Source: Shigella phage 2019SD1. Taken from it: DNA of 53,145 nucleotides. Position 1 is the stretch's first letter; each line of letters opens with the position of its first letter. Shown piece by piece: positions 6,126 to 53,145 of the stretch. The stretch lies in sequence record MT360681. One strand, 5' to 3'. A model generated the notes under the pieces. That model was given only the letters and a program-made list of their open reading frames with translations, was not told where the DNA came from and searched no databases. The translations under genes were made by a program, and so were the position numbers.

Positions 6126-6569
6126 ATGGTTGATGAATTTTTCACTGACGCAGAAATCACGCAGCAAATCGTGAAATTGGCGCCACCGATGAAGCAGATT
6201 GATCCAGATTTAATGGAGGCATGGATTGATCTTGCAAAGGAATTTGTTTGCAAGAAGCGGTTTAAAGAATCATATCCCAAAGCGGTTGCTCTTTATACGT
6301 TGCACCTTATGACGCTTGACGGAGCGATGAAGCAAGAAGGGAAAGCGGTTGATGAATTTTTCACTGACGCAGAAATCACGCAGCAAATCGTGAAATTGGC
6401 GCCACCGATGAAGCAGATTGATCCAGATTTAATGGAGGCATGGATTGATCTTGCAAAGGAATTTGTTTGCAAGAAGCGGTTTAAAGAATCATATCCCAAA
6501 GCGGTTGCTCTTTATACGTTGCACCTTATGACGCTTGACGGAGCGATGAAGCAAGAAGGGAAAGCGTAG
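6126..6569 (+). CDS. Hypothetical head-tail connector-like protein; exact tandem 219-bp duplication (6129-6347 and 6348-6566)
   Basis: ORF with 73-aa unit repeated twice in frame. Confidence 0.3.
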
Positions 6570-7816: not shown

Positions 7817-8268
7817 AGTTTGACTATGCCGAAGTTGACACAGAATACTTGTCATTGGATCGCAAATGCGTTTCTTATATTGGAATGATTCAGGTTGGCA
7901 TTGTGTTTCCACCGGTTACGGAACTGACAGGCCGCGCGTTCTCGCTAAAGAGATTGCGCAATTCTTTTACGATGGTAAAATGCTGGAGCATGGTTATATA
8001 TATGAGGGTGCAAGAGTTCACAAGCCGCTCAAGAGTGAAAGCGGTTGGCTTCTCCTGCGTTTCTTATATTGGAATGATTCAGGTTGGCATTGTGTTTCCA
8101 CCGGTTACGGAACTGACAGGCCGCGCGTTCTCGCTAAAGAGATTGCGCAATTCTTTTACGATGGTAAAATGCTGGAGCATGGTTATATATATGAGGGTGC
8201 AAGAGTTCACAAGCCGCTCAAGAGTGAAAGCGGTTGGCTTCTCCTGTAAGATTTTATGTTCGAATTGA
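7813..8268 (+). CDS. Hypothetical tail completion / terminator-like protein; tandem ~189-bp duplication (7866-8054, 8055-8243); reading frame ambiguous
   Basis: Two overlapping ORFs in different frames both span the duplicated unit. Confidence 0.2.
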   Translation: MKFDYAEVDTEYLSLDRKCVSYIGMIQVGIVFPPVTELTGRAFSLKRLRNSFTMVKCWSMVIYMRVQEFTSRSRVKAVGFSCVSYIGMIQVGIVFPPVTELTGRAFSLKRLRNSFTMVKCWSMVIYMRVQEFTSRSRVKAVGFSCKILCSN

Positions 8269-12286: not shown

Positions 12287-12930
12287 GCAATTCAAATGGT
12301 GCACGCAAACGCAAGGAGGCGGCGGCACTATGACCACATCAAATAACGACAGGAAATCTCATTTGGTAATGGTTACACGCAGGTTGCTTCAGGAGGGTTT
12401 AACACGGTACGCAGGGAGTTTTCCATTGTCTATGTTGGCAAGGATTACAGAGACGTTGTTGACTTCCAAACTTGAGCAATTCAAATGGTGCACGCAAACG
12501 CAAGGAGGCGGCGGCACTATGACCACATCAAATAACGACAGGAAATCTCATTTGGTAATGGTTACACGCAGGTTGCTTCAGGAGGGTTTAACACGGTACG
12601 CAGGGAGTTTTCCATTGTCTATGTTGGCAAGGATTACAGAGACGTTGTTGACTTCCTGAATGGACACAGGCTGAAGCCGTTTTATGGTTTATGCCTGACG
12701 GTCAACCCGGTCTATTCAGGGTAAAATCTGGTAGCGTTGGATTAACTCCAATATCAGCAACCGTTCAGGAAGTGAAAGCAACATTTACTGAGCAATTTAC
12801 ATCAATGCAACCTGACGGTCAACCCGGTCTATTCAGGGTAAAATCTGGTAGCGTTGGATTAACTCCAATATCAGCAACCGTTCAGGAAGTGAAAGCAACA
12901 TTTACTGAGCAATTTACATCAATGCAATAA
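12234..12930 (+). CDS. Minor tail protein (lambda M-like, tentative); two tandem duplications (12282-12470/12471-12659 and 12694-12810/12811-12927)
   Basis: Position between tape measure and L-like gene; split into two ORFs each made of an exactly repeated unit. Confidence 0.3.
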
Positions 12931-15150: not shown

Positions 15151-18100
15151 GTGGCTGAAAATATGATAACGGGCAGTAAGGGTGGATCATCAAAACCTTA
15201 TGTTCCGAAAGAGATGGAAGATAACCTGATCTCAATCAACAAAATCAAAATCCTTCTTGCCGTTTCCGATGGCGAGTGCGATCCAAATTTTACACTTCGC
15301 GATCTGTATCTTGATGATGTTCCGGTAATTGCAGACGACGGAACTGTTAACTACCGTGGTGTGAAAGCTGAATTTCGACACGGAACACAAACGCAAGATT
15401 ACATCCGGGGTTTACTGACACATCAAGCGAAGACGCTGGCGCGTGACATTACGACGACAAATCCTTATGTAATTTCTGTAACCAACAAAACATTATCGGC
15501 TATCAGAATAAAAATTCTAATGCCAACAGGCATTAAGCAAGAGGATAACGGCGATCTTGTAGGTGTTAAGGTCACTTATGCTGTTGATATGGCTGTTGAC
15601 GGAGACTCTTACAAAGAAGTATTGATAGACACCATCGAAGGTAAAACGCGTTCCGGTTACGACAGAAGTCGAAGGATTGACCTTCCGGCATTTAATGATC
15701 GCGTATTGCTTAGGGTTAGAAGGGTTACGGCAGACAGCACATCATCTCGCGTTACTGATCTGATTAAGCTACAAAGTTACGCTGAGGTTATTGATGCAAA
15801 ATTCCGTTACCCTCTGACTGGTCTTGTATACGTTGAATTTGACAGTGAGTTGTTCCTAACCAGATCCACGCTGGCGCGTGACATTACGACGACAAATCCT
15901 TATGTAATTTCTGTAACCAACAAAACATTATCGGCTATCAGAATAAAAATTCTAATGCCAACAGGCATTAAGCAAGAGGATAACGGCGATCTTGTAGGTG
16001 TTAAGGTCACTTATGCTGTTGATATGGCTGTTGACGGAGACTCTTACAAAGAAGTATTGATAGACACCATCGAAGGTAAAACGCGTTCCGGTTACGACAG
16101 AAGTCGAAGGATTGACCTTCCGGCATTTAATGATCGCGTATTGCTTAGGGTTAGAAGGGTTACGGCAGACAGCACATCATCTCGCGTTACTGATCTGATT
16201 AAGCTACAAAGTTACGCTGAGGTTATTGATGCAAAATTCCGTTACCCTCTGACTGGTCTTGTATACGTTGAATTTGACAGTGAGTTGTTCCTAACCAGAT
16301 CCCGAGAGTATCACGGTTCATGGGATGGTACTTTCAAGAAAGCGTGGTCGAACAATCCGGCGTGGGTTCTTTATGACATTATCACAAACCAGCGATACGG
16401 ATTAGATCAGCGAGAACTTGGCGTGCAGGTTGACAAATGGAGTCTTTACGAAGCGGCGCAATACTGCGATCAGAAAGTGCCTGACGGAAAAGGCGGCACA
16501 GAGCCGCGTTATCTATGCGACGTTGTTATTCAAAGCCAGATTGAGGCTTATCAGCTTATTCGTGATATTTGCTCAATCTTCCGAGGCATGAGCTTTTGGA
16601 ATGGGGAGAGCCTGTCAATCGTCATTGATAAGCCGCGCGATCCGTCGTACATCTTCACCAATGACAACGTTGTTGATGGCGATTTTCAGTACACAACAGC
16701 AAGCGAAAAGAGCATGTACACGCAGTGCAACGTGACGTTCGACGACGAACAAAACATGTATCAACAGGACGTGGAGGGCGTATTCGACACTGAGGCAGCA
16801 TTGCGCTTTGGATACAATCCAACAAGCATAACAGCTATCGGATGTACACGCAGGAGTGAGGCTAATCGGCGCGGTAGATGGATACTAAAACCAACTTGCG
16901 CAGCACTACGGGATACTAAAACCAACTTGCGCAGCACTACGGTAAACTTTGCTACTGGACTGGAAGGCATGATCCCATCAATAGGTGATGTTATCGCGGT
17001 GTCAGATAACTTTTACAGCAGCAACCTGAAATTAAACCTTTCAGGGCGCGTGATGGAAGTTTCCGGCTTGCAGGTGTTCGTCCCGTTTAAGATTGACGCG
17101 CGACCGGTGATTTCATTATCATCAACAAGCCTGACGGAAAGCCAGTTAAGCGCACAATCTCAAAGGGTTGTGTCGTGGGATAAAGTACCTTACGCATCGC
17201 TGTATGAAATGCAATGGCGAAAAGGTGATGGCAACTGGCTGAATACACCACAGACCGCAAACAAAGAAATTGAGGTTGAAGGTATTTATTCAGGCAACTA
17301 CCGGCCAAACACTTCATTGTCGGATGCGGTTAAGTTAACTGGCGCGCCGGGCTCCCCACCTTACCAGTCAGCGAAGCTGTCACAATTCTTGACCGGGCGA
17401 TGTAGAACCGGAAGCGGAAACAGATCTCACCCTTACCGGCCAAACACTTCATTGTCGGATGCGGTTAAGTTAACTGGCGCGCCGGGCTCCCCACCTTACC
17501 AGTCAGCGAAGCTGTCACAATTCTTGACCGGGCGATGTAGAACCGGAAGCGGAAACAGATCTCACCCTTACCGGTTTGGCATTCGTGTTAAGTGGGGTAT
17601 GCCAGAAGGGAGCGGAGACACGGCATACATTGAGCTTCACCAGTCGCCAGATGGAACAGCGGAAAACTCAAGCCTGTTAACGCTGATACCATACCCACAA
17701 TATGAATATTGGCACGGTACGCTTCCGGCTGGTCATGTTGTATGGTATCGAATCAGAAGCGTGGACAGGATCGGCAATGTTTCCGGTTGGACGGATTTTG
17801 TTCGCGGCATGGCTTCAGATGATGTTGAGGCTGTTTTAGGCAATATTCTTGATAAGATTTTTGATACAGAAGCAGGAAAGGATCTGAAAGAGAATGCCAT
17901 TGATAGCGCAAACAAAATCAAGGATCAGGCGCAAAGCATCATTCAAAACGCATTGGCGAATGATGCAGACGTTAGGATCATGAGGAAGGAAAACGGAAAA
18001 CGCAAAGCCGAGTTTAGGCAATCAATCCAATTGATCGCAAGTGAAACTGAGGCGCGCGTTACCGCAATGACGCAACTCAAGGCTGAATTTGACGAGGAAA

Positions 18101-18771
18101 TAACCAGCGAAGTAACAAGGCTTGATCAGGCAATTGCAACAGAATCGGAAACGCGAGCAACAGCCATTGAGGAATTGAAATCACAGATTGGTGATGATAT
18201 TCAGGGGCAATTAACGCGGGTTGAGGAAGCGATTGCAAGCGAAACAGAGGCGCGCGTTTCTGCTGATACAGCATTAACAGCGAAGTTTGGAGATGTTGAA
18301 TCAGCGCTGACAGAAAAACTTGATTCATGGGCTGGCGTTAATGGAGTTGGCGCACAGTACGCAATGAAACTTGGATTGACATACAACGGGCAGAAGTACA
18401 GCGCCGGAATGGTCATGCAGTTATCAAACAGCGCTCAAGGGTTGATTTCACAAATACTTTTGATGCTGGAAGATTTGCGATCAGTCGAAAATAACCAAGT
18501 TTTCATCAATAGCTTGTTAGTTAAGGATGGTTCAATAAACAATGCGAAGATTGGAAACTTTATTCAGTCAAATAATTGGGATGGTAACAATGGTTGGCAC
18601 ATAAATAAAAATGGCGATGCGTATCTAATGAATGCAACAGTTAGAGGTTCACTTTACGCATCAAACGGAAATTTTTCTTTTAATGGTACTAACAATACAG
18701 TTGTTATAAATAACAATGGTATAACTGTAAACCTTCCTAATGGCGGTCGCGTTGTTGTTGGTGTTTGGTAA
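15151..18771 (+). CDS. Tail tip / host specificity protein J (central tail fibre); tandem 435-bp duplication (15433-15867, 15868-16302), 135-bp tandem duplication (17301-17435, 17436-17570), 30-bp tandem repeat near 16890
   Basis: Clear similarity by eye to lambda gpJ, e.g. ..WDGTFKKAWSNNPAWVLYDIITNQRYGL..VDKWSLYEAAQYCDQKVPDGKGGTEPRY.. Confidence 0.85.
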   Translation: MAENMITGSKGGSSKPYVPKEMEDNLISINKIKILLAVSDGECDPNFTLRDLYLDDVPVIADDGTVNYRGVKAEFRHGTQTQDYIRGLLTHQAKTLARDITTTNPYVISVTNKTLSAIRIKILMPTGIKQEDNGDLVGVKVTYAVDMAVDGDSYKEVLIDTIEGKTRSGYDRSRRIDLPAFNDRVLLRVRRVTADSTSSRVTDLIKLQSYAEVIDAKFRYPLTGLVYVEFDSELFLTRSTLARDITTTNPYVISVTNKTLSAIRIKILMPTGIKQEDNGDLVGVKVTYAVDMAVDGDSYKEVLIDTIEGKTRSGYDRSRRIDLPAFNDRVLLRVRRVTADSTSSRVTDLIKLQSYAEVIDAKFRYPLTGLVYVEFDSELFLTRSREYHGSWDGTFKKAWSNNPAWVLYDIITNQRYGLDQRELGVQVDKWSLYEAAQYCDQKVPDGKGGTEPRYLCDVVIQSQIEAYQLIRDICSIFRGMSFWNGESLSIVIDKPRDPSYIFTNDNVVDGDFQYTTASEKSMYTQCNVTFDDEQNMYQQDVEGVFDTEAALRFGYNPTSITAIGCTRRSEANRRGRWILKPTCAALRDTKTNLRSTTVNFATGLEGMIPSIGDVIAVSDNFYSSNLKLNLSGRVMEVSGLQVFVPFKIDARPVISLSSTSLTESQLSAQSQRVVSWDKVPYASLYEMQWRKGDGNWLNTPQTANKEIEVEGIYSGNYRPNTSLSDAVKLTGAPGSPPYQSAKLSQFLTGRCRTGSGNRSHPYRPNTSLSDAVKLTGAPGSPPYQSAKLSQFLTGRCRTGSGNRSHPYRFGIRVKWGMPEGSGDTAYIELHQSPDGTAENSSLLTLIPYPQYEYWHGTLPAGHVVWYRIRSVDRIGNVSGWTDFVRGMASDDVEAVLGNILDKIFDTEAGKDLKENAIDSANKIKDQAQSIIQNALANDADVRIMRKENGKRKAEFRQSIQLIASETEARVTAMTQLKAEFDEEITSEVTRLDQAIATESETRATAIEELKSQIGDDIQGQLTRVEEAIASETEARVSADTALTAKFGDVESALTEKLDSWAGVNGVGAQYAMKLGLTYNGQKYSAGMVMQLSNSAQGLISQILLMLEDLRSVENNQVFINSLLVKDGSINNAKIGNFIQSNNWDGNNGWHINKNGDAYLMNATVRGSLYASNGNFSFNGTNNTVVINNNGITVNLPNGGRVVVGVW

Positions 18772-18775
18772 TGCA

Positions 18776-18797
18776 AAGGGGCTTTTGCCCCTTTTTA
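18776..18797 (+). terminator. Rho-independent terminator after J
   Basis: GGGGC-TTTT-GCCCC followed by TTTTT. Confidence 0.6.
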
Positions 18798-18880
18798 ATA
18801 CATATTTGGAGTGAATGGTATAGGCATTGAAATATTTATATTAAATGGAAATTGAGCGCCACTCTGAGTAGAATAGTTAC

Positions 18881-19291
18881 CTACCCTTGTTCCCGGGCAC
18901 TTCTTACGTTGCCACCACTCATGCATACGCCCTTGTATCGAATGTTATTATATCCACCCGTAACTCTACATATCGTACCTGTTCTCAGTATTGGGAAAAA
19001 TCCACCGCACCACTGCCAACCATCATTTATCGCCATAATCCCACCAAGAACAAAAGGACGTCTAACGCTTGAGAAAACTATCTGACCAGCAGGATTGCTC
19101 ATAGTGATTCCCGGCTCTGGGATGTAATCCATGTCGTCTATGTAGATAGCCTGAGATGGAAGGCAAAAGCGGTAGATCCCGGACAATGGGATAACCCAAA
19201 CGTAACTCTGGAATCTGACGGCAACACTATATGGTGCAGAGATGCAAACTATAACGGCATTGATGACGTTGGCGCGAGCGTATACGTGCAA
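18881..19291 (-). CDS. Hypothetical protein (frame uncertain)
   Basis: 136-aa minus-strand ORF in region between J and lipoprotein gene; overlapping ORFs in other frames. Confidence 0.2.
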   Translation of the reverse strand: MHVYARANVINAVIVCISAPYSVAVRFQSYVWVIPLSGIYRFCLPSQAIYIDDMDYIPEPGITMSNPAGQIVFSSVRRPFVLGGIMAINDGWQWCGGFFPILRTGTICRVTGGYNNIRYKGVCMSGGNVRSAREQG

Positions 19292-19563
19292 CTCGTAATA
19301 TTTAATAACACTCCACCACCTCCGTATTATTTAACCAGCTTCCAGAAGGTTAATGATTCAACTGGACGGATAACGGTAGGTAATTTTAACGGGCACGGTG
19401 GAAGGAGGATGAGATTTTATGGCAACTGTTACGAGATACTACCCGCTCAGGCTGGAAATCAGGGGATACTTGTTAACGATTCAACCAACTTTGCAGCGAT
19501 ACCGAATAACGCAAGGTTGATGAGCGCTGCATTTGTTGGAGGCATCCGTGTTAACGGTCAGGC

Positions 19564-19828
19564 TCAGTTGCCAGTCCGGTGTTCCTTTCGGAATGTGGGA
19601 TTACCACTCTTTGGTTTTGATTGATACCTTGCCGCTAAAGTTGCCCGGTCGTCATCGGATGAAAGACCTTTGAATCGCATATCGATTTCTCCAGCCGGAA
19701 CCTTCTTACCATCAACGAATAGCATCATACAAGATCCGTAAGTGTAAGTAACACAGTCGCCATTTTAAGATTCTGAGCACAACCAGTCATGGCAATGGCT
19801 GCAATCAAAACGGGGATTAACTTTTTCA
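19564..19828 (-). CDS. Small lipoprotein, candidate superinfection-exclusion protein (Cor/Llp-like); one internal frame change
   Basis: TAAGGAGA RBS, ATG at 19828 (minus), N-terminus MKKLIPVLIAAIAMTGC with lipobox; promoter motif copy 19886-19904 upstream; located next to tail tip gene. Confidence 0.45.
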
Positions 19829-22409: not shown

Positions 22410-22934
22410 ATGCATATCATTACTGGTGAGATCCGAAAAGAGCCGCGAGTAAAGCAAATGCCTAACGGCAGCACACTTTATGTGGTTGAACTTTCAGAGC
22501 GATACAAAGATAAAGATGGAAACTGGCAATATACAAACTACAGTTTCTTTTTAATGCGAAAACAGAAGGTCTTAAGGGTTGGTATGATGAGGCGTTCCGG
22601 TTGGCAAGGTTATTTCTGTATCTTGCATATCATTACTGGTGAGATCCGAAAAGAGCCGCGAGTAAAGCAAATGCCTAACGGCAGCACACTTTATGTGGTT
22701 GAACTTTCAGAGCGATACAAAGATAAAGATGGAAACTGGCAATATACAAACTACAGTTTCTTTTTAATGCGAAAACAGAAGGTCTTAAGGGTTGGTATGA
22801 TGAGGCGTTCCGGTTGGCAAGGTTATTTCTGTATCTTGTGACACTCTGCGCATTGAAACGCGAGAACACAACGGAAAGATGTATGACAAAGCAATCAACC
22901 TCCTATGGACTTTGACGACGATATTCCTTTCTGA
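22410..22934 (+). CDS. ssb: Single-stranded DNA-binding protein; exact tandem 213-bp duplication of N-terminal OB-fold segment and frame disruption before the C-terminal tail
   Basis: CAGGAGAATGAATA plus ATG; N-terminal ..TGEIRKEPRVKQMPNGSTLYVVELSERYKDKDGNWQYT.. OB-fold-like; a downstream frame ends ..MDFDDDIPF-stop, the hallmark SSB acidic tail. Confidence 0.55.
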
Positions 22935-23843: not shown

Positions 23844-24003
23844 TGAATTGCAAAATCAACCGTGTCGAGCAATTGGTAAACTTCAAGTTGCCTACTCCTC
23901 AGACTCCGCCTACTGGCTGTTGCGCAACAGCCAGTAGGCGGAGTCTGAGGAGTAGGCAACTTGAAGTTTACCAATTGCTCGACACGGTTGATTTTGCAAT
24001 TCA
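23844..24003. repeat. Perfect 160-bp palindrome (two 80-bp inverted arms, centre at 23923/23924)
   Basis: Right arm is exact reverse complement of left arm. Confidence 0.85.
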
Positions 24004-24399
24004 ATATAAAACATTTGTCAGCGATATGTAAGCAACTGGCATAAAGACGAAAAAGCGCAGCCTGAGCCGCGCTTGAGTTAAAAGATTGCATCCTCTCAGA
24101 TATGATTGGAGTTGATGAAAACGGCGAGGAGTACGTTGATCATCAAATTGAAACGGATCGCACAGATGACACTCTGGCGCTCGATAGCAACGTTATGCTA
24201 ACTGATATGGCTTGCGCTATGGTTTACATGGGAGGGATGATCGAAAACCAGAAAAAGGAGATAGACGAATTAAAGGCGGCTGTTGCTGCACTGCTCAATA
24301 AAACTTTACTCCCTACTGGTGGTGGTTTTGGTGGCGAAGCTGGCGCGGCTGGTCTTGGCGGCGCTGTTGGCGGCCTGATTGGGTCATGGTTTGGTAACG

Positions 24400-24870
24400 G
24401 CTTTAATGGTCGTGGTGGTTATGGTGGTGATGGTGCGGCTGTTGCTGTCGGTGCTAACGCTGTTCTTGATGGTATTAATAACATCCAGACAGGTGTAAAC
24501 AACCCGGTCTGCAAACTCTGCAAGGCCAAAACTCCACAAACCTTGCCGTTGAGCGCTCCGCCGCATCAACCTTTAACGGCATTACCAGCCAGAATACGCA
24601 AAACCTGCTTGCATCGGTGCAAGGCTTCGCCGGACCATAACAGGAGACCGGTACAAGTTTCACATATTGGGAATCGACATTCATCATATCTTGAGCAATC
24701 AGGCCGTAACGCTGAATGTCATCTCGCTTATACTTAAACATTGTCGGAAGCCATTGCATGACGCGATCATAACTTTCTTTTCCATCCGTATAAACGATGT
24801 CTTTTTCAGATCTCTGTCAGACGTTGGATTTTTGCAAAATCGTAGTTTCCTGTTCCAAACTGGCCATTAC
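24400..24870 (-). CDS. Fragment resembling the C-terminal intramolecular chaperone (peptidase S74-like) domain of tail fibres/spikes
   Basis: Minus-strand translation ..SEKDIVYTDGKESYDRVMQWLPTMFKYKRDDIQRYGLIAQDMMNVDSQYVKLVPV..; no clear start; downstream frame breaks. Confidence 0.35.
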
Positions 24871-25104
24871 CGACGGTGGGTTTTGACGAGCAATCTCTAT
24901 GCTAGACAGATCTGAAAGGTTCGCATCTTTTCTTAGTAGATTTTCAGCATTAAGGCTTTTAGCAAATTCCTCAGCCTCATTTCGCGCCGTAACAGCGCCG
25001 TTTTTGCAGTTTCAGCGGCGTTATTTGCAGATTGAGCGCCAGTCAGACAAACGGCGTGGTCTGGTACGTATTATACAGAGTATGTTCCTTTTACGCTGAA
25101 ATCT

Positions 25105-25156
25105 GACGCTTGTCCGGTTCTGTAAATTGCGCAATTTACAGAACCGGACAAGCGTC
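25105..25156. repeat. Perfect 52-bp palindrome
   Basis: GACGCTTGTCCGGTTCTGTAAATTGC / GCAATTTACAGAACCGGACAAGCGTC. Confidence 0.8.
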
Positions 25157-25337
25157 AAAACAACGACGCAGGATGGTCGCCAATCGTTTGTGGAGGTAGT
25201 CAGTCGCAATGGGGTTATGCTCTAAAATCAGCTTTCGGAACTATTGCTAATAACCAAGCTTGGCCTGATACAGCTATACACCACTCATTCGCCCCGGTGC
25301 AACAATCTTTTTCATTGATGCACCGTTTCAAGCGGCT

Positions 25338-27494
25338 GTGATTGGTGATAACGCTCATAACAGGATGTTTTATTTTCTCATACCGGGACGTCGGGTTGGT
25401 CCTTTTGATAGTGTTGGTGCTAATACGATTATTTACTCGCCAGACGGATCTTATAGGTTGGTTATCAGAGATGACGGATTACTAGTTTATCAGAAAGGTG
25501 ACGGAACTGAAACCAAGCCATTTGAAATTGCGACTGGTGGGACTGGGGCAACTGATGCAGCAGGTGCTCGCAATAATCTTGGGCTTGGCAGCTATACACC
25601 ACTCATTCGCCCCGGTGCAACAATCTTTTTCATTGATGCACCGTTTCAAGCGGCTGTGATTGGTGATAACGCTCATAACAGGATGTTTTATTTTCTCATA
25701 CCGGGACGTCGGGTTGGTCCTTTTGATAGTGTTGGTGCTAATACGATTATTTACTCGCCAGACGGATCTTATAGGTTGGTTATCAGAGATGACGGATTAC
25801 TAGTTTATCAGAAAGGTGACGGAACTGAAACCAAGCCATTTGAAATTGCGACTGGTGGGACTGGGGCAACTGATGCAGCAGGTGCTCGCAATAATCTTGG
25901 GCTTGGGACTGGGCAAGACGTTCAATTTAAGAGCATTACGGCTACAGACGGCGATATTCTAGTTCCGCAAACTCACGTTGTAGGATGTAAAACTAATACT
26001 GGCGGTAACAAAAATATCTATCTGACGAACTTACCGGAGAATCAACTTCAGGTGGGTGGGACTGGCGCTCAATCTGCAAATAACGCCGCTGAAACTGCAA
26101 AAACGGCGCTGTTACGGCGCGAAATGAGGCTGAGGAATTTGCTAAAAGCCTTAATGCTGAAAATCTACCATGTATTGCTGGGCGACGCTCAAGGTTATAT
26201 CACTGGATACGATACGAAATGGCGAGAGCAATTAACACTCATTCGCCCCGGTGCAACAATCTTTTTCATTGATGCACCGTTTCAAGCGGCTGTGATCAGT
26301 GAAGTTATCAGCGATACACAAATCCGCGCTATCACAACTGGCGGCGCTGAAATTGGGCGGAGCAACTACATTATTTTGCTGCATGACTCAATCACTGTTG
26401 ATGGCCCGGCGCAAGATGTTGCGGAAACTCTGCGTTACTATCAAAGCAAAGAAACTCAGATCGAGGAAGCTATTGAATTTTTCAAAAACTTTGATCTAAA
26501 ACAGTTGCAAGATCTGGCTAATCAGGTTAAAGGTGATGCAGAGAAAACAGCCAATGATCGTGCTGCTACTGAACAACTGAAAAACGACACTCAACATATA
26601 AAGGATTCTGCTGTTGCTGAAACAAACCAGATTAAAGCAGACACTAACGCAATCAAGGCGCAAACACAACAGATTAAAGATTCTGCGATAACGGAAGTTA
26701 ATTCCGCACGCGATCAAGGTGTTTTAGCTGTAAACCAGACTAAAGATCAGGCTGTTTCAGAAATGAATCAGATAAAGGGTGATGTTTCGAATCTGAAAAC
26801 GAAGCTATTTCAGCAAGGGATTCAGCCCAGCAATACATGGCAATGGACGCTCAAGGTTATATCACTGGATACGATACGAAATGGCGAGAGCAATATCAGT
26901 GAAGTTATCAGCGATACACAAATCCGCGCTATCACAACTGGCGGCGCTGAAATTGGGCGGAGCAACTACATTATTTTGCTGCATGACTCAATCACTGTTG
27001 ATGGCCCGGCGCAAGATGTTGCGGAAACTCTGCGTTACTATCAAAGCAAAGAAACTCAGATCGAGGAAGCTATTGAATTTTTCAAAAACTTTGATCTAAA
27101 ACAGTTGCAAGATCTGGCTAATCAGGTTAAAGGTGATGCAGAGAAAACAGCCAATGATCGTGCTGCTACTGAACAACTGAAAAACGACACTCAACATATA
27201 AAGGATTCTGCTGTTGCTGAAACAAACCAGATTAAAGCAGACACTAACGCAATCAAGGCGCAAACACAACAGATTAAAGATTCTGCGATAACGGAAGTTA
27301 ATTCCGCACGCGATCAAGGTGTTTTAGCTGTAAACCAGACTAAAGATCAGGCTGTTTCAGAAATGAATCAGATAAAGGGTGATGTTTCGAATCTGAAAAC
27401 GAAGCTATTTCAGCAAGGGATTCAGCCCAGCAATACACATGCGTTTTCTCCCGTGTTGCATGTTAATGTCAATGCAGATAATAGCATTTGCTAA
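25338..27494 (+). CDS. Long tail fibre protein; 318-bp tandem duplication (25271-25588, 25589-25906), 600-bp tandem duplication (26297-26838 and 26897-27438) and frame disruption near 26100
   Basis: N-terminal ..GGTGATDAAGARNNLGLG.. motif common to phage tail fibres; long coiled-coil-like repeats rich in A/T/N/Q/K. Confidence 0.6.
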   Translation: MIGDNAHNRMFYFLIPGRRVGPFDSVGANTIIYSPDGSYRLVIRDDGLLVYQKGDGTETKPFEIATGGTGATDAAGARNNLGLGSYTPLIRPGATIFFIDAPFQAAVIGDNAHNRMFYFLIPGRRVGPFDSVGANTIIYSPDGSYRLVIRDDGLLVYQKGDGTETKPFEIATGGTGATDAAGARNNLGLGTGQDVQFKSITATDGDILVPQTHVVGCKTNTGGNKNIYLTNLPENQLQVGGTGAQSANNAAETAKTALLRREMRLRNLLKALMLKIYHVLLGDAQGYITGYDTKWREQLTLIRPGATIFFIDAPFQAAVISEVISDTQIRAITTGGAEIGRSNYIILLHDSITVDGPAQDVAETLRYYQSKETQIEEAIEFFKNFDLKQLQDLANQVKGDAEKTANDRAATEQLKNDTQHIKDSAVAETNQIKADTNAIKAQTQQIKDSAITEVNSARDQGVLAVNQTKDQAVSEMNQIKGDVSNLKTKLFQQGIQPSNTWQWTLKVISLDTIRNGESNISEVISDTQIRAITTGGAEIGRSNYIILLHDSITVDGPAQDVAETLRYYQSKETQIEEAIEFFKNFDLKQLQDLANQVKGDAEKTANDRAATEQLKNDTQHIKDSAVAETNQIKADTNAIKAQTQQIKDSAITEVNSARDQGVLAVNQTKDQAVSEMNQIKGDVSNLKTKLFQQGIQPSNTHAFSPVLHVNVNADNSIC

Positions 27495-27516: not shown

Positions 27517-27535
27517 GCGAAAGTAGCAGTGACAT

Positions 27536-28470
27536 GATCCAACCAACTCCGGTATCATTACCGCACACGTTGCAGATCGCACCGCCATCGCCTTTTTATC
27601 GCCAAGTTTATCCGTCCATCTGAAGCGATCCTTTCCGCCGCAGTGGGGCTTTTCATTGATGAAGAAGGTAAACAGTCTTTTCTAGCAAAGGACTACACGC
27701 GCGGGTCGGTTGTGAGAACAGGAAACACCGATAAGACTATCTATCTTTGCGTTGACTGGATTGATGCGCAACATATTCACCTTGCAACTGGTCAAGAGGT
27801 TTGGGCCTGCTTCGATGCAACTAATATTGAGATTGTAGCTTACAGGTATAAAGGCAACAGAAGAATGCGAGTTGTCTGTAAGAGTACAGACCGTGACGCT
27901 ATCATAGCTGCCGAGGAAAGAGGTCTTGAAATTATGATGCCGATTAATGATAATTACAGGCAAGGGATAGACAGGAAGGTTTACAAACCTGAATCTCTTC
28001 TCAAGCTAACCGGAGAACCTTACAGCGAAGTGATCAATATTTTGGGCCGTTTTCTTGGGAAAGTTCCACAGGACTATAGAATCAAGGCAAATAAGCGAGT
28101 ATCTCGTGATTCTGGTTATTCGTTTGGGAAACAGGCAAGTCATGAATGCTGCGAGCGCGTTATGTCAAAAACATTAAAATTTGATCGCACGCCGTTAAGC
28201 ACATATGAAGGAATATACCCGCCTGAAGATGGTTATTATGAATGCGGCGTAAAAGATGGTCGATACATTCACGCGTTACCATGTTACCGGTGCATTCAGA
28301 TGAAATTGATGATGAAATGTGCAATGTGCTTTTCATTGATGAAGAAGGTAAACAGTCTTTTCCCCCACTGCGGCGGAAAGGATCGCTTCAGATGGACGGA
28401 TAAACTTGGCGATAAAAAGGCGATGGCGGTGCGATCTGCAACGTGTGCGGTAATGATACCGGAGTTGGTT
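27536..28470. repeat. Segment bounded by ~115-bp perfect inverted repeats (27536-27650 and 28354-28470) plus 34-bp direct repeats (27648-27682, 28320-28353)
   Basis: Exact reverse-complement identity of the two outer arms. Confidence 0.8.
27643..28319 (+). CDS. Hypothetical protein encoded inside the inverted-repeat-flanked segment
   Basis: Open frame across the internal segment; GTG start; no recognisable motifs. Confidence 0.25.
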
Positions 28471-28622
28471 GGATCACAAGATTGATGCTTGCCGTTAAAA
28501 ACTTCATTTGGAAGACCGCAAATACTTTGTAGCGCCTCACGCCACAATCCTTGCATATATGGGAGTACATCTTCCTTTTGATAAACCATAAAGTTTTCGT
28601 TATTCATATACACCTCAAACAA
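28354..28622 (-). CDS. Hypothetical protein, N-terminal part only (frame ends inside inverted repeat)
   Basis: Minus-strand start at 28622; protein-like N-terminus MFEVYMNNENFMVYQKEDVLPYMQGLWREALQ.. Confidence 0.25.
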
Positions 28623-28645
28623 AAAGCCTGACAGATGATAACATC

Positions 28646-29158
28646 ATGCCGGGCATTGTTTTTCTTATTGAGTATTACGGCAGCGTGTCAGCAATGTCAA
28701 GCCGTGCTTTTAGTCCAGCGCGAAAGAACAGCGAATCGCGGTATCAACTGGCAAGATTGACAAACGCACAATCAATGGCAATAACGGAACTCGACGGGGT
28801 AAAGATAAGAAAAGCGCAAGCGCCCTACAGGATACTATGTTTTAAAAGAGCAAAGCGTCTTAACGTTAGCCAGCAAACTGTAAATCAGTGGCGTGTTCGC
28901 GGTATGATTTCAGCCGCTGGCGCTCAAAAGGTGCATAACGATTACAAGAAATATGGTTGTCAAGGCTATCGCGCGTCATTCTGCCGTCCAGACCTGCGAT
29001 TTGATTCCAATGGAAAACCGCTCACAAAGAGATGTGATAAGCGTGAAATGTTGCGAGTAGTAAGAATGTCAGATTATGAACCCGGCGGATTCCTGTATAA
29101 ACCTGAAAGCACTAATTGCCATTATTCATTCTCCAATAGCATTTTTGTTAAACAATGA
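28646..29158 (+). CDS. Hypothetical DNA-binding protein (HTH-like)
   Basis: Segment ..RLNVSQQTVNQWRVRGMIS.. resembles a helix-turn-helix. Confidence 0.3.
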   Translation: MPGIVFLIEYYGSVSAMSSRAFSPARKNSESRYQLARLTNAQSMAITELDGVKIRKAQAPYRILCFKRAKRLNVSQQTVNQWRVRGMISAAGAQKVHNDYKKYGCQGYRASFCRPDLRFDSNGKPLTKRCDKREMLRVVRMSDYEPGGFLYKPESTNCHYSFSNSIFVKQ

Positions 29159-31206: not shown

Positions 31207-31303
31207 TGCAATATGTGAATCACATCATGCCACCATCGCGTGTGACTCACCGCAAGACTAGCAAGGAGAAGATAATTTGTACAAGAAGGAGTTTAATTAT
31301 GGC

Positions 31304-31808
31304 AATGACTGATAAAGGCGATTATCTGGAGTTTTACGAAAGAGATCCGACGGATACGCTAAAGGAGGAATCACACCAGATCGGGGCGTTTCAATGGTTA
31401 ACTTATGCTCATCCTGAATTTCTTGCCGGCATACGAAAACGAGGGCGACAAGGGATCGCCACCGCAATGATGGATCAGCAAGCAGGACTCGTTAAGGGAG
31501 TAAGTGATTTCATCATCCTGATTGGATTAAAGGCCGTTATCCGTTCGCGGCAAGCAATGACTGATAAAGGCGATTATCTGGAGTTTTACGAAAGAGATCC
31601 GACGGATACGCTAAAGGAGGAATCACACCAGATCGGGGCGTTTCAATGGTTAACTTATGCTCATCCTGAATTTCTTGCCGGCATACGAAAACGAGGGCGA
31701 CAAGGGATCGCCACCGCAATGATGGATCAGCAAGCAGGACTCGTTAAGGGAGTAAGTGATTTCATCATCCTGATTGGATTAAAGGCCGTTATCCGTTCGC
31801 GGCAATAG
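31304..31808 (+). CDS. Hypothetical nuclease-like protein (VRR-NUC-like, tentative); exact tandem 252-bp duplication (31303-31554, 31555-31806)
   Basis: AGGAG RBS plus ATG at 31304; ..GLVKGVSDFIILIG.. loosely resembles VRR-NUC motif. Confidence 0.3.
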
Positions 31809-31900: not shown

Positions 31901-32653
31901 ATGGCGCAATCCTTCGCGCCTGTTTTAACAAAAGTGCTATTTCATCATGTATTCTACAGCGATCATGAATTGCTTATATCCGTATGTTACGGCAGCGAAT
32001 CCGCCAAGCTCACGCACGCGGCGCAAGAAGGCTTTAGTAAAGAAACTGAAGTGACATTTGAACAAATAGAACGAGAAACATTCATTGGCAATGCTCTTGC
32101 TACTGGAGGCCATTACCGTGCCGTTAAACCAAATCAATATTATAAAGTCACTGGCAACCGCTATAACGGCAGCAACACGCCTGACATTGTGCGCGATTTG
32201 TGGTCCACGCCGTCAGAGGTTGTCGAATGGATGGAAAGCGAATACGGTGATTATGACATCGACGCGGCGGCAAGCAAAGAAAACGCTGTATGTGAAAAAT
32301 TCTACAGCAAGGAAACAAATTGCTTAAAGCGTTGGTGGGGTAGTAATAAGCATATCTGGCTGAATCCACCGTACAGCAATATAACGCCTTTCGTTAAGAA
32401 AGCGATTGAGCAAATGGAGCACAATAACCAGATCGACATTCTGTTGCCTTGCGACACATCGACAGGATGGTTTTATGAGGCACAACAGAAAGCAGCGGAA
32501 ATCATCTGGATCACTGGCGAAGTTTACCGGAGGACGGAACAGAATATTCCCGCACAGGACGCCTTGCTTTCACTTCAGCGCTTACAGGTAAACCAGTGCA
32601 GGAAACAACAAAGGAAGCGTTATTTTCATCATGCGCGAACTGAAAGAAGGTGA
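31901..32653 (+). CDS. dam: DNA N6-adenine methyltransferase (phage Dam family); C-terminus probably frame-disrupted
   Basis: ..WSTPSEV..DIDAAAS..HIWLNPPYS.. motifs (NPPY catalytic motif) as in phage Dam-type methyltransferases. Confidence 0.6.
   Translation: MAQSFAPVLTKVLFHHVFYSDHELLISVCYGSESAKLTHAAQEGFSKETEVTFEQIERETFIGNALATGGHYRAVKPNQYYKVTGNRYNGSNTPDIVRDLWSTPSEVVEWMESEYGDYDIDAAASKENAVCEKFYSKETNCLKRWWGSNKHIWLNPPYSNITPFVKKAIEQMEHNNQIDILLPCDTSTGWFYEAQQKAAEIIWITGEVYRRTEQNIPAQDALLSLQRLQVNQCRKQQRKRYFHHARTERR
31921..31942 (-). promoter_or_regulatory. Conserved promoter-like motif copy, leftward orientation, inside start of Dam ORF
   Basis: TGTTTTAACAAAAGTGCTATTT. Confidence 0.3.
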
Positions 32654-35327: not shown

Positions 35328-35935
35328 TGAGTATAAAACAAAGAAACGTACACACAGAGAGAGTGCGATGCGCTACTGGCAAAGCATATCAAGATCGCAA
35401 AGGATGAAGTTGATAAACGTGTAAAGGTTGATATCCCTGATACAATGACCGCTGCGGCTTTTGGCGTTGCTCTTGCTCTTACTTCTCCATTACTGGAGGA
35501 AATAGAAGGAGTAAAACATAAACCGTACAAAGATATTGCTGGAATATGGACGGTTTGCGCCGGAATAACTGGACCTGACGTAATGCCGACCGCTGCGGCT
35601 TTTGGCGTTGCTCTTGCTCTTACTTCTCCATTACTGGAGGAAATAGAAGGAGTAAAACATAAACCGTACAAAGATATTGCTGGAATATGGACGGTTTGCG
35701 CCGGACGCGCAGCGATGTATTCATTCACATACAATGCTGGCACTGGTGCTTTTAGAAATTCAACCATGCTTAAGCTGATTAATAACGGTCGTTATATGGA
35801 AGCGTGCAATCAGTTATGGCGATGGACAAAATACACCAATCCAAAACAGGAAAGAAAGAAACGTCTAAAGGACTGCGCAACCGCCGCGCGGTGGAATTTA
35901 AATATTGCATTAAGGATCTGTAATCATGAGAAAGT
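35327..35935 (+). CDS. Endolysin, GH24 lysozyme-like; tandem ~141-bp duplication (35447-35587, 35588-35710) and frame disruption near N-terminus
   Basis: ..LEEIEGVKHKPYKDIAGIWTVCAG.. matches the E-G..Y.D..G..T.G.G lysozyme catalytic region; C-terminal ..FTYNAGTGAFRNSTMLKLINNGRYMEACNQLWRW.. Confidence 0.55.
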
Positions 35936-36026
35936 TATCAGCAATCGCGATCGCTGTTATTTAATATGCGTGGTTGTGTTAATTGTGCTGATTTGTCTTT
36001 ACTGGAGAGAAGAAAAGGAGGCTTAA
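35927..36026 (+). CDS. Small membrane protein (possible spanin fragment)
   Basis: ATG at 35927 overlapping end of endolysin; hydrophobic stretch; frame interrupted. Confidence 0.2.
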
Positions 36027-36040
36027 CGCCTCCTTTGTTA
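36015..36040. terminator. Bidirectional rho-independent terminator between endolysin region and convergent minus-strand gene
   Basis: GGAGGC-TTAAC-GCCTCC followed by TTTGTTA. Confidence 0.55.
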
Positions 36041-36280
36041 TTCAATTCTCTTTACAGTAACCAACAAAACGCCGTCATCATCACACAAATTATGCTCTGA
36101 TATGTTAAACGCTCGCATGTCAGAATGAATGAGCGTTAACATTGCGTGCATGAAGTCTTCATGTGAGATTTGAGAAGTAGCGCAAAACTTAAGAATTTCA
36201 TCTATCAGTTTACTTTCCATGATTTTCATGATAACCAAGTTTAGCCTCTGCTTGTTCTCTTGCCATAATTGCATCATCAA
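36038..36280 (-). CDS. Hypothetical protein (80 aa)
   Basis: Minus-strand ORF ending at the bidirectional terminator. Confidence 0.4.
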   Translation of the reverse strand: MMMQLWQENKQRLNLVIMKIMESKLIDEILKFCATSQISHEDFMHAMLTLIHSDMRAFNISEHNLCDDDGVLLVTVKRIE

Positions 36281-36324
36281 TGCTTGAAAATAATCCTAAA
36301 TGAACACTCTTACCTTTATCATAT

Positions 36325-36978
36325 ATGGTTGCATGCCATTTTTTCTTTCTTCCTCCAGCACACCCCTATTCCATTGTCATATATAAATATTTTATTCCAA
36401 TCGATTGGAATAAAATATTTATATATGACAATGGAATATTGTGGGAAATGCACAATGGAAAAATACCAGAAGGAATGGAGATAGATCATATATGGCACAA
36501 TAGGTGGGATAACAGGATTGAAAATTTAAGGCTTGCATCAAGATTAGAGAACAGCAAAAACGTATCTCTACTAAAAAGAAATAAATCTGGTAGGGTTGGG
36601 GTGTGCTGGAGGAAGAAAGAAAGGTGGAGAAACAGAAGGGGAAAAGCAAAGCACGGAAGCGTTGCTGGATGTGTAGATAAAAATGGCTATGTAAGAATAA
36701 GGTATAATGGTGTATTGCTTTTGGCACATAGGATAATATGGGAAATGCACAATGGAAAAATACCAGAAGGAATGGAGATAGATCATATATGGCACAATAG
36801 GTGGGATAACAGGATTGAAAATTTAAGGCTTGCATCAAGATTAGAGAACAGCAAAAACGTATCTCTACTAAAAAGAAATAAATCTGGTAGGGTTGGGGTG
36901 TGCTGGAGGAAGAAAGAAAAAATGGCATGCAACCATATACATATCTTTTCCTTAGAGCTTTTATTTGTTGTCTATTAA
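36325..36978 (+). CDS. HNH homing endonuclease with AP2-like DNA-binding domain; internal ~180-297-bp duplication (36442-36620 approx = 36739-36917)
   Basis: ..NGYVRIRYNGVLLLAHRIIWEMHNGKIPEGMEIDHIWHNRWDNRIENLRLASRLENSKN.. classic HNH motif; ..KSGRVGVCWRKK.. AP2-like. Confidence 0.65.
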   Translation: MVACHFFFLPPAHPYSIVIYKYFIPIDWNKIFIYDNGILWEMHNGKIPEGMEIDHIWHNRWDNRIENLRLASRLENSKNVSLLKRNKSGRVGVCWRKKERWRNRRGKAKHGSVAGCVDKNGYVRIRYNGVLLLAHRIIWEMHNGKIPEGMEIDHIWHNRWDNRIENLRLASRLENSKNVSLLKRNKSGRVGVCWRKKEKMACNHIHIFSLELLFVVY

Positions 36979-36996
36979 CATTTGACGTAAACAGTT

Positions 36997-37500
36997 CTTC
37001 ATCGCTCATTTCTCCGATCCGTAAAACATCCCTAACCCATTCGTTTTGCATACCTTCCGGGCTGTAAAGTTCAAACGAGAAAGGTCGATTTGCGGATCCT
37101 TTCTTACACCAGAACTTTCCATCAACTCCATCTGCTGCATTCAGGAACTGAACTGAGCGAGCAATGTTGCGCGCCAACTTTCCAACAACATCAACATCAT
37201 TGCCAAGAGAAATTACAGGGTAGCGATCATTTCCGTTATTAACATCATTAACCTCACCCCAAAAGCTGGACGATTGACGGTATCCGTTTGCCTGAATGGA
37301 CACGCGCACCGGAGACAATCCTTGTGCATCAGCTAATTCGATAATTTGTTTTGGTGTTAGTTTGTTGGTTTCAAACGAAAAATTCGAGTTGATGGAAAGT
37401 TCTGGTGTAAGAAAGGATCCGCAAATCGACCTTTCTCGTTTGAACTTTACAGCCCGGAAGGTATGCAAAACGAATGGGTTAGGGATGTTTTACGGATCGG
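36997..37500. repeat. Fold-back structure: ~95-bp perfect inverted repeats (36997-37090 and 37405-37500) flanking a ~315-bp segment that codes on the minus strand
   Basis: 37405-37500 is the exact reverse complement of 36997-37090; best reading frame of the enclosed segment is on the minus strand whereas the continuing gene is on the plus strand. Confidence 0.8.
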
Positions 37501-38747
37501 AGAAACTTGGACGCTTCACGGTTGAGTATCACGGAACGGATCAGCCGACCGCTCTTTATGTTGTCACAAGCCAGCCTCCTTCAACTGGTAAATCTGCCGT
37601 TAACAGCCCGGCACTTGCTCCAATGGTTGCAGAAGTAGAAAGAATTAACGATCAGCGAAAGAAGGAAAGAAAAAGATTCAGGCAAAGTTGGCAGGTCTTG
37701 CAAAAGAGACTTGGACGCTTCACGGTTGAGTATCACGGAACGGATCAGCCGACCGCTCTTTATGTTGTCACAAGCCAGCCTCCTTCAACTGGTAAATCTG
37801 CCGTTAACAGCCCGGCACTTGCTCCAATGGTTGCAGAAGTAGAAAGAATTAACGATCAGCGAAAGAAGGAAAGAAAAAGATTCAGGCAAAGTTGGCAGGT
37901 CTTGCAAAAGAGAAGCAAAACATACATTAGCGCCGCCAACGCTTCTGGCTATGCTGGTGATGATGCTGAAATGGGTAAACTAATCGAGATCATCACTCGA
38001 CACGGCAAGGCTAATAAGGGGATCTTGAATGTGCGCGCCATATATGAGGCTGCACGAAAAGTTAAGCCGTTTGTTGGTCAGGCTGGCGTAATGAAGCGTA
38101 TGGAAACGCAACTGCTGCCGATGCTTGAAGAAAGAAATTATATTTGTGTGATTAATGGCGTTGTTTTTGTAAATCCAACATTGCTGGGGAGTGAATCAAA
38201 CATCCAGCTTAAGATCAGCAAATCAGCAATGCGAGTTCTTAACATGGCTCGTCAGGAGATGGAACCGCACCTTGCTGATGGAGGAAAGTATTCGCATACA
38301 ATGCTGCGCGGCGCGCTTGGCAAAATGGATAAGCAGGTGATCAGGATTGCTTCAGTTTTGCACACTATCCGCAACTGGTTTAATCGGCGGATACCCTCAA
38401 AAGTCGAAAGAGATCTGAAAGCATGGGATCACGGTCATGTTTCTATAGCTCGTGCAAACGCTGACAACAATATGAGTTTTAAAGCTCTTGGCTGTATGGC
38501 GGTAATTGCCCGTGATGAAACAATCAATGCCATCATGGATGCAGGATCGCGCGGTATCGGTGTGAGTGAGCGTTATTTGCTTGTGCGTGAGGAATCATTT
38601 TGTGACATCGTTTTCCCTGTGTCCGACACCACGCCGGAAGGACTTGCAAGAATCAACAATCGCCGGGGTAACTTTGCTGTGATTTCAGACGAGGCAACGA
38701 GTATTAACAGCCTTATTGATGATAACTCCTTTTTGATGCGGCAATAA
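37500..38747 (+). CDS. Putative replication protein with P-loop-like motif (primase/helicase-type, tentative); tandem 204-bp duplication (37506-37709, 37710-37913); native N-terminus probably lies in the inverted segment upstream
   Basis: ..VVTSQPPSTGKSAV.. Walker A-like; long ORF in replication region. Confidence 0.3.
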   Translation, partial: EKLGRFTVEYHGTDQPTALYVVTSQPPSTGKSAVNSPALAPMVAEVERINDQRKKERKRFRQSWQVLQKRLGRFTVEYHGTDQPTALYVVTSQPPSTGKSAVNSPALAPMVAEVERINDQRKKERKRFRQSWQVLQKRSKTYISAANASGYAGDDAEMGKLIEIITRHGKANKGILNVRAIYEAARKVKPFVGQAGVMKRMETQLLPMLEERNYICVINGVVFVNPTLLGSESNIQLKISKSAMRVLNMARQEMEPHLADGGKYSHTMLRGALGKMDKQVIRIASVLHTIRNWFNRRIPSKVERDLKAWDHGHVSIARANADNNMSFKALGCMAVIARDETINAIMDAGSRGIGVSERYLLVREESFCDIVFPVSDTTPEGLARINNRRGNFAVISDEATSINSLIDDNSFLMRQ

Positions 38748-43631: not shown

Positions 43632-44774
43632 TTGTGGTGCTTAAGCGTGGATAACATCAAGTATCCGATCACGTTCCACACGGTTGGTAACTCAACTATT
43701 CGATTCACATCTCGCGACAATGGCGTTTATAGCGACGGTCAGAAATCAGAGTTGAAAGTTGATTTCTTTGTCAATGGTCACAACAAATTCAATCCGCACA
43801 ACGAAAAAGATAAGGTGTACTACGTGGAAGATATTACAAAACACTTGTTTGGCGAAACTCCATTCGGCGGCGGGAAGACGTCAATTCAACAAATCATTGA
43901 CGATCAGATCCGCAAGGCAGCCGTTGAAATGAAAGCGCCCGGAGGCTGGCGTATTGATAAGGGCGCCTTTACCATTCAAGAAATCGTAACGCAGGGCGCG
44001 ATTGAAGACATGCCGCTTGGCGCTTCAATCATCGGCATCAAAGACGACAACGGCGACTGGCAGGATGTTTCATTCCTGTTAAGCAGATCGAAGTACACGA
44101 CGACCTGTTTTGCCTCCCGGCGCATCATGGCAGCTACAAGGGCAAAGCCTTTGCCGCAGAGCTTGACATCAAGCGCGGAACGATTGTTAAGTGGAAGGCA
44201 AAAGTGTAAAGATAACATCAAGTATCCGATCACGTTCCACACGGTTGGTAACTCAACTATTCGATTCACATCTCGCGACAATGGCGTTTATAGCGACGGT
44301 CAGAAATCAGAGTTGAAAGTTGATTTCTTTGTCAATGGTCACAACAAATTCAATCCGCACAACGAAAAAGATAAGGTGTACTACGTGGAAGATATTACAA
44401 AACACTTGTTTGGCGAAACTCCATTCGGCGGCGGGAAGACGTCAATTCAACAAATCATTGACGATCAGATCCGCAAGGCAGCCGTTGAAATGAAAGCGCC
44501 CGGAGGCTGGCGTATTGATAAGGGCGCCTTTACCATTCAAGAAATCGTAACGCAGGGCGCGATTGAAGACATGCCGCTTGGCGCTTCAATCATCGGCATC
44601 AAAGACGACAACGGCGACTGGCAGGATGTTTCATTCCTGTTAAGCAGATCGAAGTACACGACGACCTGTTTTGCCTCCCGGCGCATCATGGCAGCTACAA
44701 GGGCAAAGCCTTTGCCGCAGAGCTTGACATCAAGCGCGGAACGATTGTTAAGTGGAAGGCAAAAGTGTAAATAG
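43632..44774 (+). CDS. Hypothetical early protein; exact tandem ~561-bp duplication (43650-44210, 44211-44771); C-terminus frame-disrupted
   Basis: 380-aa ORF consisting of two identical 187-aa units. Confidence 0.35.
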   Translation: MWCLSVDNIKYPITFHTVGNSTIRFTSRDNGVYSDGQKSELKVDFFVNGHNKFNPHNEKDKVYYVEDITKHLFGETPFGGGKTSIQQIIDDQIRKAAVEMKAPGGWRIDKGAFTIQEIVTQGAIEDMPLGASIIGIKDDNGDWQDVSFLLSRSKYTTTCFASRRIMAATRAKPLPQSLTSSAERLLSGRQKCKDNIKYPITFHTVGNSTIRFTSRDNGVYSDGQKSELKVDFFVNGHNKFNPHNEKDKVYYVEDITKHLFGETPFGGGKTSIQQIIDDQIRKAAVEMKAPGGWRIDKGAFTIQEIVTQGAIEDMPLGASIIGIKDDNGDWQDVSFLLSRSKYTTTCFASRRIMAATRAKPLPQSLTSSAERLLSGRQKCK

Positions 44775-53034: not shown

Positions 53035-53145
53035 ATGGTTTCCCGGCTTTACTGTTGACGGCGTGGCAGATGAGGCGGCATTCCGTTCCTTGTGGGATGA
53101 GAAGCGACTCAATGCAAAATTATTGATGCGCTTTGTTGGTCGCGT
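53035..53145 (+). CDS. Portal protein N-terminal segment (continues at position 179 after wrap)
   Basis: ATG at 53035 after AGGAAAG-like RBS and terminase terminator; downstream sequence identical to 179-255 apart from one A-run length difference; the frame needs a 1-bp correction. Confidence 0.35.

Follow-up and report, generated by a model that had tools for sequence, protein, structure and literature searches.

The locus lies in the genome deposited for Shigella phage 2019SD1 (GenBank MT360681, 53,145 bp; IMG/VR entry IMGVR_UViG_2974632794_000001), described by Kumar, Meghvansi and Kamboj (Sci Rep 2021, PMC8590004); this whole record is the window of our analysis. Its backbone is that of a Hanrivervirus (Drexlerviridae, Tempevirinae, T1-like). 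In the relatives Fulano1 (OL539459), slyngel (MT074433) and BEK12B (MN158215), the natural locus carries the holin, endolysin and spanin genes on one strand, and a small gene, the HNH gene or genes, a gp50/YdbL-like gene and a 527-aa DUF3987 helicase on the opposite one. Blocks of the 2019SD1 locus were assigned by nucleotide and translated alignment to these three genomes. The coordinates of the published Supplementary Table S1 are those of the window, with ORF44 ('HNH endonuclease') at 36448..36978 and ORF45 ('Helicase') at 37392..38747 (PMC8590004).

Layout of the locus

A remnant of the native HNH endonuclease (Fulano1 gp49-like, aa 108-158) occupies 36210..36362 on the minus strand; it was identified by tblastn and is colinear with Fulano1 35976-36328. 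Self-comparison and alignment reveal next to it a perfect, spacer-less 72-nt palindrome (36 + 36) at 36367..36438, where the start region of the native HNH gene is followed by its flipped copy. Flipped HNH gene blocks, recognized from repeats, alignment and HNH_3 matches, extend over 36436..36939 on the plus strand and are the source of the authors' ORF44. The 'HNH' ORF contains a 192-nt direct repeat (36431-36622 / 36728-36919), and a 45-nt inverted repeat pairs 36322-36366 with 36895-36939.

Next, at 36941..37132 on the minus strand, come the last 64 codons of the gp50/YdbL-like gene, in native orientation (tblastn, aa 64-127, 93.75%); they hold the left arm of a large inverted repeat. A spurious small ORF runs through them on the same strand at 37006..37131: its interior, 37009-37128, is the left arm. 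A 12-nt filler, TGCTGCATTCAG (37133-37144), separates the gp50-like remnant from the helicase N-terminus and matches neither the gp50-like gene nor the helicase of the relatives. We considered helicase codons 95-97 as its source and rejected them: the 9-nt match, found by eye, lies within a rough chance estimate. Helicase aa 2-81 (DUF3987, Fulano1 gp52-like) stands at 37145..37384 on the minus strand, in native orientation and displaced beside the gp50-like remnant (tblastn, 98.75%); it makes up the spacer of the inverted repeat.

The right arm, on the plus strand at 37386..37505, contains at 37392 the ATG from which the authors' ORF45 starts. Behind it come flipped helicase blocks, all on the plus strand: aa 99-166 at 37506..37913, doubled (2 x 204 nt) and with a 1-nt deletion inside; aa 436-527 at 37914..38189; aa 345 to ~421 at 38190..38417; aa 250-310 at 38418..38600; and aa 194-231 at 38601..38714. 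In the self-comparison, the doubling appears as an exact 204-nt tandem duplication, 37501-37704 / 37705-37908. With the 192-nt, 45-nt and 72-nt structures, this makes four more exact repeats within 1.5 kb of the large inverted repeat. From 38715 onward, the sequence is again native and colinear with the relatives.

A perfect inverted repeat with an ORF interior as its arm

The initial annotation had recognized an exact inverted repeat at this site, and one is indeed present. Its arms, 37009-37128 and 37386-37505, are 120 nt long each and 100% complementary, the spacer measures 257 nt, and pairing stops at the very next base on both sides. The limits first given for it were wrong: 37405-37500, described as the exact reverse complement of 36997-37090, agrees with it at only 27 of 94 positions, its true partner being 37014-37109. 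The enclosed segment was correctly seen to code on the minus strand, where it carries helicase aa 2-81 at 98.75% identity to Fulano1 gp52, but it is 257 nt long and not the ~315 bp supposed. A perfect inverted repeat with 120-nt arms in 53 kb cannot be attributed to chance.

On the minus strand, an ATG (37129-37131) stands before the left arm, which runs through 40 open codons up to a TGA (37006-37008). This ORF reads ELMESSGVRK...GSEK, in a frame that differs from that of the gp50/YdbL-like protein (VDGKFWCKK...). The left arm is thus the full interior of a spurious ORF, out of frame within the gp50/YdbL-like gene. The right arm is the reverse complement of this 40-codon interior, minus start and stop.

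The same ATG...TGA bracket around the left-arm sequence was found in five natural relatives, and the second (right) arm is absent from the relatives. A 40-nt probe laid over the junction 37505|37506 matched no other viral contig in IMG/VR. The junctions 37385|37386 and 37505|37506 would be absent from the real phage DNA. The inverted repeat exists in the file, yet very probably it is not part of a phage genome.

The helicase and HNH reading frames are composites

The arrangement had been read as rc(N'J)-J-C, with J taken from the replication gene and the N-terminal part of that gene exchanged for its own inverted copy. Neither element of this reading survives comparison with the orthologues. 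J is the interior of the out-of-frame ORF in the gp50/YdbL-like gene and does not come from the helicase; only aa 2-81 of the helicase keep their native orientation, and the remainder of the gene is flipped, shuffled and duplicated. Segments aa 82-98, 167-193, 232-249, 311-344 and 422-435 are lost from the window. Whichever way 37129-37385 points, the helicase is split into six pieces with five segments missing; it could not function, which would hold as well for many other essential genes of the window.

Domain matches agree with this dissection. In the 483-aa plus-strand ORF, DUF3987 is matched in three disjoint stretches, as against a single match in the native helicase that covers profile positions 3-350 of 364. 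The helicase is colinear and mostly full-length in 37 other IMG/VR Drexlerviridae loci, and fragmented only in the 2019SD1 contig.

As for the 'AP2-HNH gene' assigned to 36325-36978, HNH matches do lie there, but it is no single genuine gene: it is a composite of flipped and duplicated blocks from a natively minus-strand HNH gene. Two HNH_3 stretches and the 72-nt palindrome fall within the plus-strand HNH ORF, while the native gene lies on the minus strand with one HNH_3 domain and a weak AP2 match. No intact, plausibly functional HNH gene was found beside the rearrangement.

Inside the published endolysin ORF42 (193 aa, 35445-36026), 118 nt are duplicated (35447-35564 / 35588-35705) and blocks are swapped. 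RefSeq and UniRef carry the resulting chimera as YP_009901432.1 and A0A6M5C909.

Scars across the whole record

Self-comparison of the whole window gave 45 repeat pairs. Taking as long the repeats of 60 nt or more at 95% identity or more, we counted 31 direct and 5 inverted ones, and 30 of the 31 direct offsets are divisible by 3. The same comparison found no repeat of 60 nt or more in Fulano1, A16a or A15a. Among tandem duplications longer than 100 nt, the period is divisible by 3 in every case (18/18).

Aligned to the complete Fulano1 genome, the window falls into 123 segments of high identity, and its blocks are variously swapped, duplicated in tandem, deleted or flipped. Scrambled genes include those of the portal, head-morphogenesis, capsid-region, tape-measure, tail-fibre, exonuclease, SSB, primase, phosphoesterase, endolysin and terminase proteins, and both helicases. 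Altogether, the 53 kb bear about 40 scars of this kind from end to end, many of them remote from HNH genes. The gene order and orientation of 2019SD1 conflict with those of every relative compared; flips at 17304-17575 and 31901-32035 even put plus-strand genes antisense.

Inverted repeats occur in other regions as well. The primase (gp36-like) and gp37-like genes, which natively lie on the minus strand, appear at 27535-29119 as flipped blocks that keep the ascending native order and include a 114-nt inverted repeat (27535-27648 / 28363-28476); the authors published them as the plus-strand ORF31 'DNA primase' and ORF32. The gp34 / L-shaped tail-fibre region, published as ORF30, is mostly flipped to the plus strand. 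It contains a 160-nt spacer-less palindrome (23844-24003), a 54-nt palindrome (25104-25157) and a 109-nt inverted repeat (24936-25044 / 26060-26168).

In the distal and L-shaped tail fibres, 17966-19777 and 24075-27438 have no Fulano1 match of 85% or more. Natural divergence of host-range modules is probably the cause here, rather than editing.

A chimera of several co-assembled phages was considered and finds no support: all blocks are 94-99% identical to one set of relatives, and the substitutions resemble ordinary synonymous divergence. We also looked for sibling records with the same damage among other Hanriverviruses, and A16a and A15a proved to be free of long repeats. These two records, 'UNVERIFIED: Campylobacter phage A16a / A15a' (MG065636.1, MG065638.1), are unannotated, coliphage-like Hanriverviruses assigned to Campylobacter jejuni, an attribution that is likely the result of contamination or mislabelling.

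Many block ends follow start and stop codons

In the helicase ORF, the block boundaries 37386, 37506, 37710, 37914, 38190, 38418, 38601 and 38715 are all 0 mod 3, and the blocks from 37386 to 38715 join as one plus-strand ORF without stops. We compared the codons that flank these blocks in the relatives. The aa 99-166 block is bracketed by ATG...TGA in five relatives, its TGA existing only in the register made by the window's own 1-nt deletion. The aa 436-527 block is bracketed by TTG...TAA, again in five relatives, and this TAA is the true stop of the gene. Blocks aa 345-~421 and aa 194-231 start directly after an ATG in the relatives. There, no stop follows directly after blocks aa 345-~421, 250-310 and 194-231, and no start codon directly precedes block aa 250-310. 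The primase and gp37 blocks have the brackets GTG...TAA and ATG...TAA.

The tandem duplications were assessed in the window's own frames, with the codons flanking each unit. Seven of the 18 take the form START/unit/unit/STOP with an open unit; random units of the same size give 0.0095 per 18. These ORFs consist of a start codon, twice the same unit and a stop codon: ORF8 (6126-6569, 2 x 219 nt), ORF11 (7866-8249, 2 x 189 nt), ORF16 (12276-12659, 2 x 189 nt), ORF17 (12691-12930, 2 x 117 nt), ORF26 (22410-22841, 2 x 213 nt), ORF34 (31299-31808, 2 x 252 nt) and ORF58 (43647-44774, 2 x 561 nt). Another five of the 18 abut a start or a stop codon at one end; in the published ORF4, 10, 15, 33 and 40, the duplication is flush with one ORF end. 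The last six have no flush end.

The register of the duplicated units is that of the erroneous sequence. Twelve units map end to end on the reference, and all 12 are multiples of 3 in the window; for 10 of them the length spanned in the reference is not divisible by 3, a 1-4 nt uncorrected deletion lying inside the unit. Since the units fall into triplets only on the erroneous sequence, the register was set on the consensus and the edits are later than it.

Other approaches to the register were abandoned. A global 3-mer grid, as if the sequence had been generated or tokenised from position 1, is contradicted by unambiguous junctions in all three residues mod 3, which track the local ORF. The codon phase of the breakpoints and the preservation of frame across joins, both taken in Fulano1 coordinates, were dropped as confounded by ~200 single-base deletions inside blocks; on the second measure, frame is preserved across 18 of 56 joins, no better than chance.

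Sequencing and quality of the consensus

The genome was sequenced on an Oxford Nanopore GridION R9.4, with base calling by Albacore 2.3.1, assembly by Canu 1.8 and no other polishing (PMC8590004; reads, SRA SRS7234126). The mean read length was 1.9 kb, and a single Canu assembly was made (PMC8590004). A 73,606-bp scaffold became a 53.15-kb genome, a reduction that the paper leaves unexplained; ORFs were called with RAST, and the deposit was made via BankIt (PMC8590004). The paper counts 64 rightward and 13 leftward genes (PMC8590004), against 63 and 26 in the two directions in Fulano1.

Mismatches and indels relative to Fulano1 differ in kind. Among coding mismatches, 975 of 1,188 (82%) fall at codon position 3, a substitution pattern that reads as ordinary synonymous divergence, hence as natural. 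The 214 single-base indels comprise 190 deletions in the window and 24 insertions (examples at 7795, 7914, 12350, 17106, 32530 and 32601); homopolymers of 5 nt or more hold 69 of the 214, many in runs of 5-6 nt. These indels split genes such as gp13, gp18 and the primase over several frames. Such an indel profile is that of a nanopore consensus left unpolished. Behind the record stands a genuine Hanrivervirus, with a poor consensus in which ~200 uncorrected single-base deletions break genes up into fragments of ORFs.

The record begins mid-portal and has a terminal direct overlap of 82 nt inside the portal gene (175-256 / 53065-53145, 98.8%, one gap). It probably remained when the 73.6-kb Canu contig, assembled from a circularly permuted or concatemeric genome, was trimmed. 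The overlap could lead completeness tools to score the contig as a complete DTR genome.

NCBI labels the endolysin (QJT70571.1), HNH endonuclease (QJT70573.1) and helicase (QJT70574.1) as 'UNVERIFIED_ASMBLY'. The helicase and HNH proteins of 2019SD1 each form a singleton cluster among ~15 billion proteins. Later papers that cite 2019SD1 confine its mention to their reference lists, with no remark on the assembly.

Origin of the inverted repeat

We now propose that the inverted repeat is very probably a scar, left when an unpolished nanopore assembly was manipulated computationally, ORF by ORF, after the consensus had been made, and not a structure of phage DNA. The start and stop codons of spurious ORFs and the sequencing errors are invisible to physical processes, be it recombination, repair after endonuclease cleavage, or chimeras of ligation or amplification, so the edits would be the work of software or of a hand. 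In some step, scripted or manual, the interiors of mechanically defined ORFs, each reaching from behind a start codon to the stop that comes next, would have been copied or doubled, reverse-complemented, put into a new order or left out. Here, the 40 codons inside the minus-strand spurious ORF would have been pasted, reverse-complemented, 257 nt downstream and ahead of the flipped helicase fragments. Together, the right arm and these fragments would have yielded one stop-free plus-strand ORF, then annotated as 'Helicase' (ORF45).

A more specific scenario is that a frameshift-fragmented Canu contig was rebuilt ORF by ORF, perhaps for stop-free CDS acceptable to submission. In such rebuilding, the interiors of minus-strand ORF fragments would have been put in sense orientation and strung together, some being entered twice. 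We lean only somewhat towards this scenario, as the paper does not say how 73.6 kb became 53.15 kb. The two antisense flips at 17304-17575 and 31901-32035 are not accounted for by a simple rule that brings every ORF into sense. Still, these flips, the non-flush block ends and the 12-nt filler do not restore a biological reading.

The initial annotation also left room for an artefact, in the form of a chimeric read or an amplification fold-back. That the repeat is an artefact holds; this particular kind does not, as its ends meet ORF start and stop codons and its register depends on errors. A physical fold-back with no later editing, whether it came from a Canu misassembly or from a nanopore read that was chimeric or palindromic (through template-complement follow-on or ligation), is accordingly improbable, for all that the data are nanopore-only, with a mean read of 1.9 kb and one Canu assembly, and that spacer-less perfect palindromes typical of fold-back reads occur at 23844-24003, 25104-25157 and 36367-36438. 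Chimera breakpoints ignore frames, whereas the piece copied here is an exact ATG-to-TGA interior and neighbouring blocks are alike; lengths are divisible by 3 only on the error-containing consensus; and duplications match annotated ORFs to the base. Far less likely still is a real rearrangement promoted by an HNH homing endonuclease, in which a double-strand break and its aberrant repair would have duplicated sequence in inverted orientation where the helicase gene starts. HNH genes are native to this neighbourhood (Fulano1 gp49, gp51 and gp53; the homing endonucleases of BEK12B), and a native HNH remnant persists at 36210-36362. But the ~40 scars over 53 kb are not confined to the neighbourhood or target of an endonuclease, the HNH gene is itself scrambled, and nothing similar occurs in any relative compared. 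The broken helicase and many other essential genes could not function, and ORF-flush ends with an error-dependent triplet register have no physical mechanism. The proposal that an HNH-promoted fold-back replaced the helicase N-terminus is contradicted by the same scars genome-wide, far from HNH genes, and by the composite nature of the HNH ORF.

Bounds made of perfect inverted repeats are also the formal anatomy of a programmed invertible segment, a switch of the Gin/Cin/Min type with inverted crossover sites. The arms at this locus are 120 nt of coding-region sequence and not short crossover sites, no invertase or recombinase is annotated among ORF41-50 (holin, endolysin, HNH, helicase, methylase, hypotheticals) or in the orthologous region of relatives, the gene is intact in neither orientation, and the second arm is absent from relatives; such a switch is scarcely conceivable. 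Equally hard to credit is a deposit true to the DNA of the stock, that is, a heavily rearranged and presumably defective Hanrivervirus with dozens of real in-frame duplications and inversions, the fold-back included. Post-assembly corruption of the record, by contrast, fits the events: they follow in-silico ORF boundaries, are later than the errors and absent from relatives, and come with a curator flag and a weak assembly.

Discussion

The record resembles several known kinds of faulty or natural sequence and departs from each. As with misassembled phage deposits flagged UNVERIFIED_ASMBLY, it bears that flag, its chimeras stand alone in singleton clusters, and its genes differ in order and orientation from those of every relative compared; unlike the usual assembler error, its damage is systematic, with block ends on start and stop codons and seven ORFs that are exact interior doublings. 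It shares with unpolished Oxford Nanopore R9.4 consensus sequences the excess of deletions over insertions (190 to 24), the homopolymer bias and the genes split over frames. Exact duplications of 117-561 nt and reverse-complemented blocks set it apart from a consensus with point errors only: point errors cannot make either, so that a second, ORF-aware step is needed.

Fold-back chimeras of long-read sequencing or amplification likewise produce exact inverted duplications and spacer-less palindromes such as those at 23844-24003 and 36367-36438, but their breakpoints are frame-blind, whereas the inverted copy in 2019SD1 is a whole ORF interior in triplet register. The native Hanrivervirus lysis-to-helicase locus (Fulano1 gp45-gp52, slyngel gp50-gp55) has the same genes at 94-99% nucleotide identity. 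There, HNH, gp50/YdbL-like and helicase genes are contiguous and intact opposite the lysis strand; in 2019SD1 they are cut, flipped and shuffled.

There is no evidence here for an HNH-driven fold-back, nor for a new mechanism of rearrangement. The importance of the finding is one of data hygiene, as the record has already spread to RefSeq (YP_ accessions), UniRef and IMG/VR. The 'helicase' stitched together in it, the doubled 'endolysin' and the 'HNH endonuclease' with two domains are unique chimeras that can mislead homology searches, surveys of domain architecture, scans for repeats and inversions, and training sets. MT360681, its RefSeq copy, IMGVR_UViG_2974632794_000001 and their UniRef proteins are unfit for use. 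The case also provides a reusable diagnostic for such records: repeat offsets divisible by 3, unit ends at start and stop codons, and a register valid only on the erroneous sequence.
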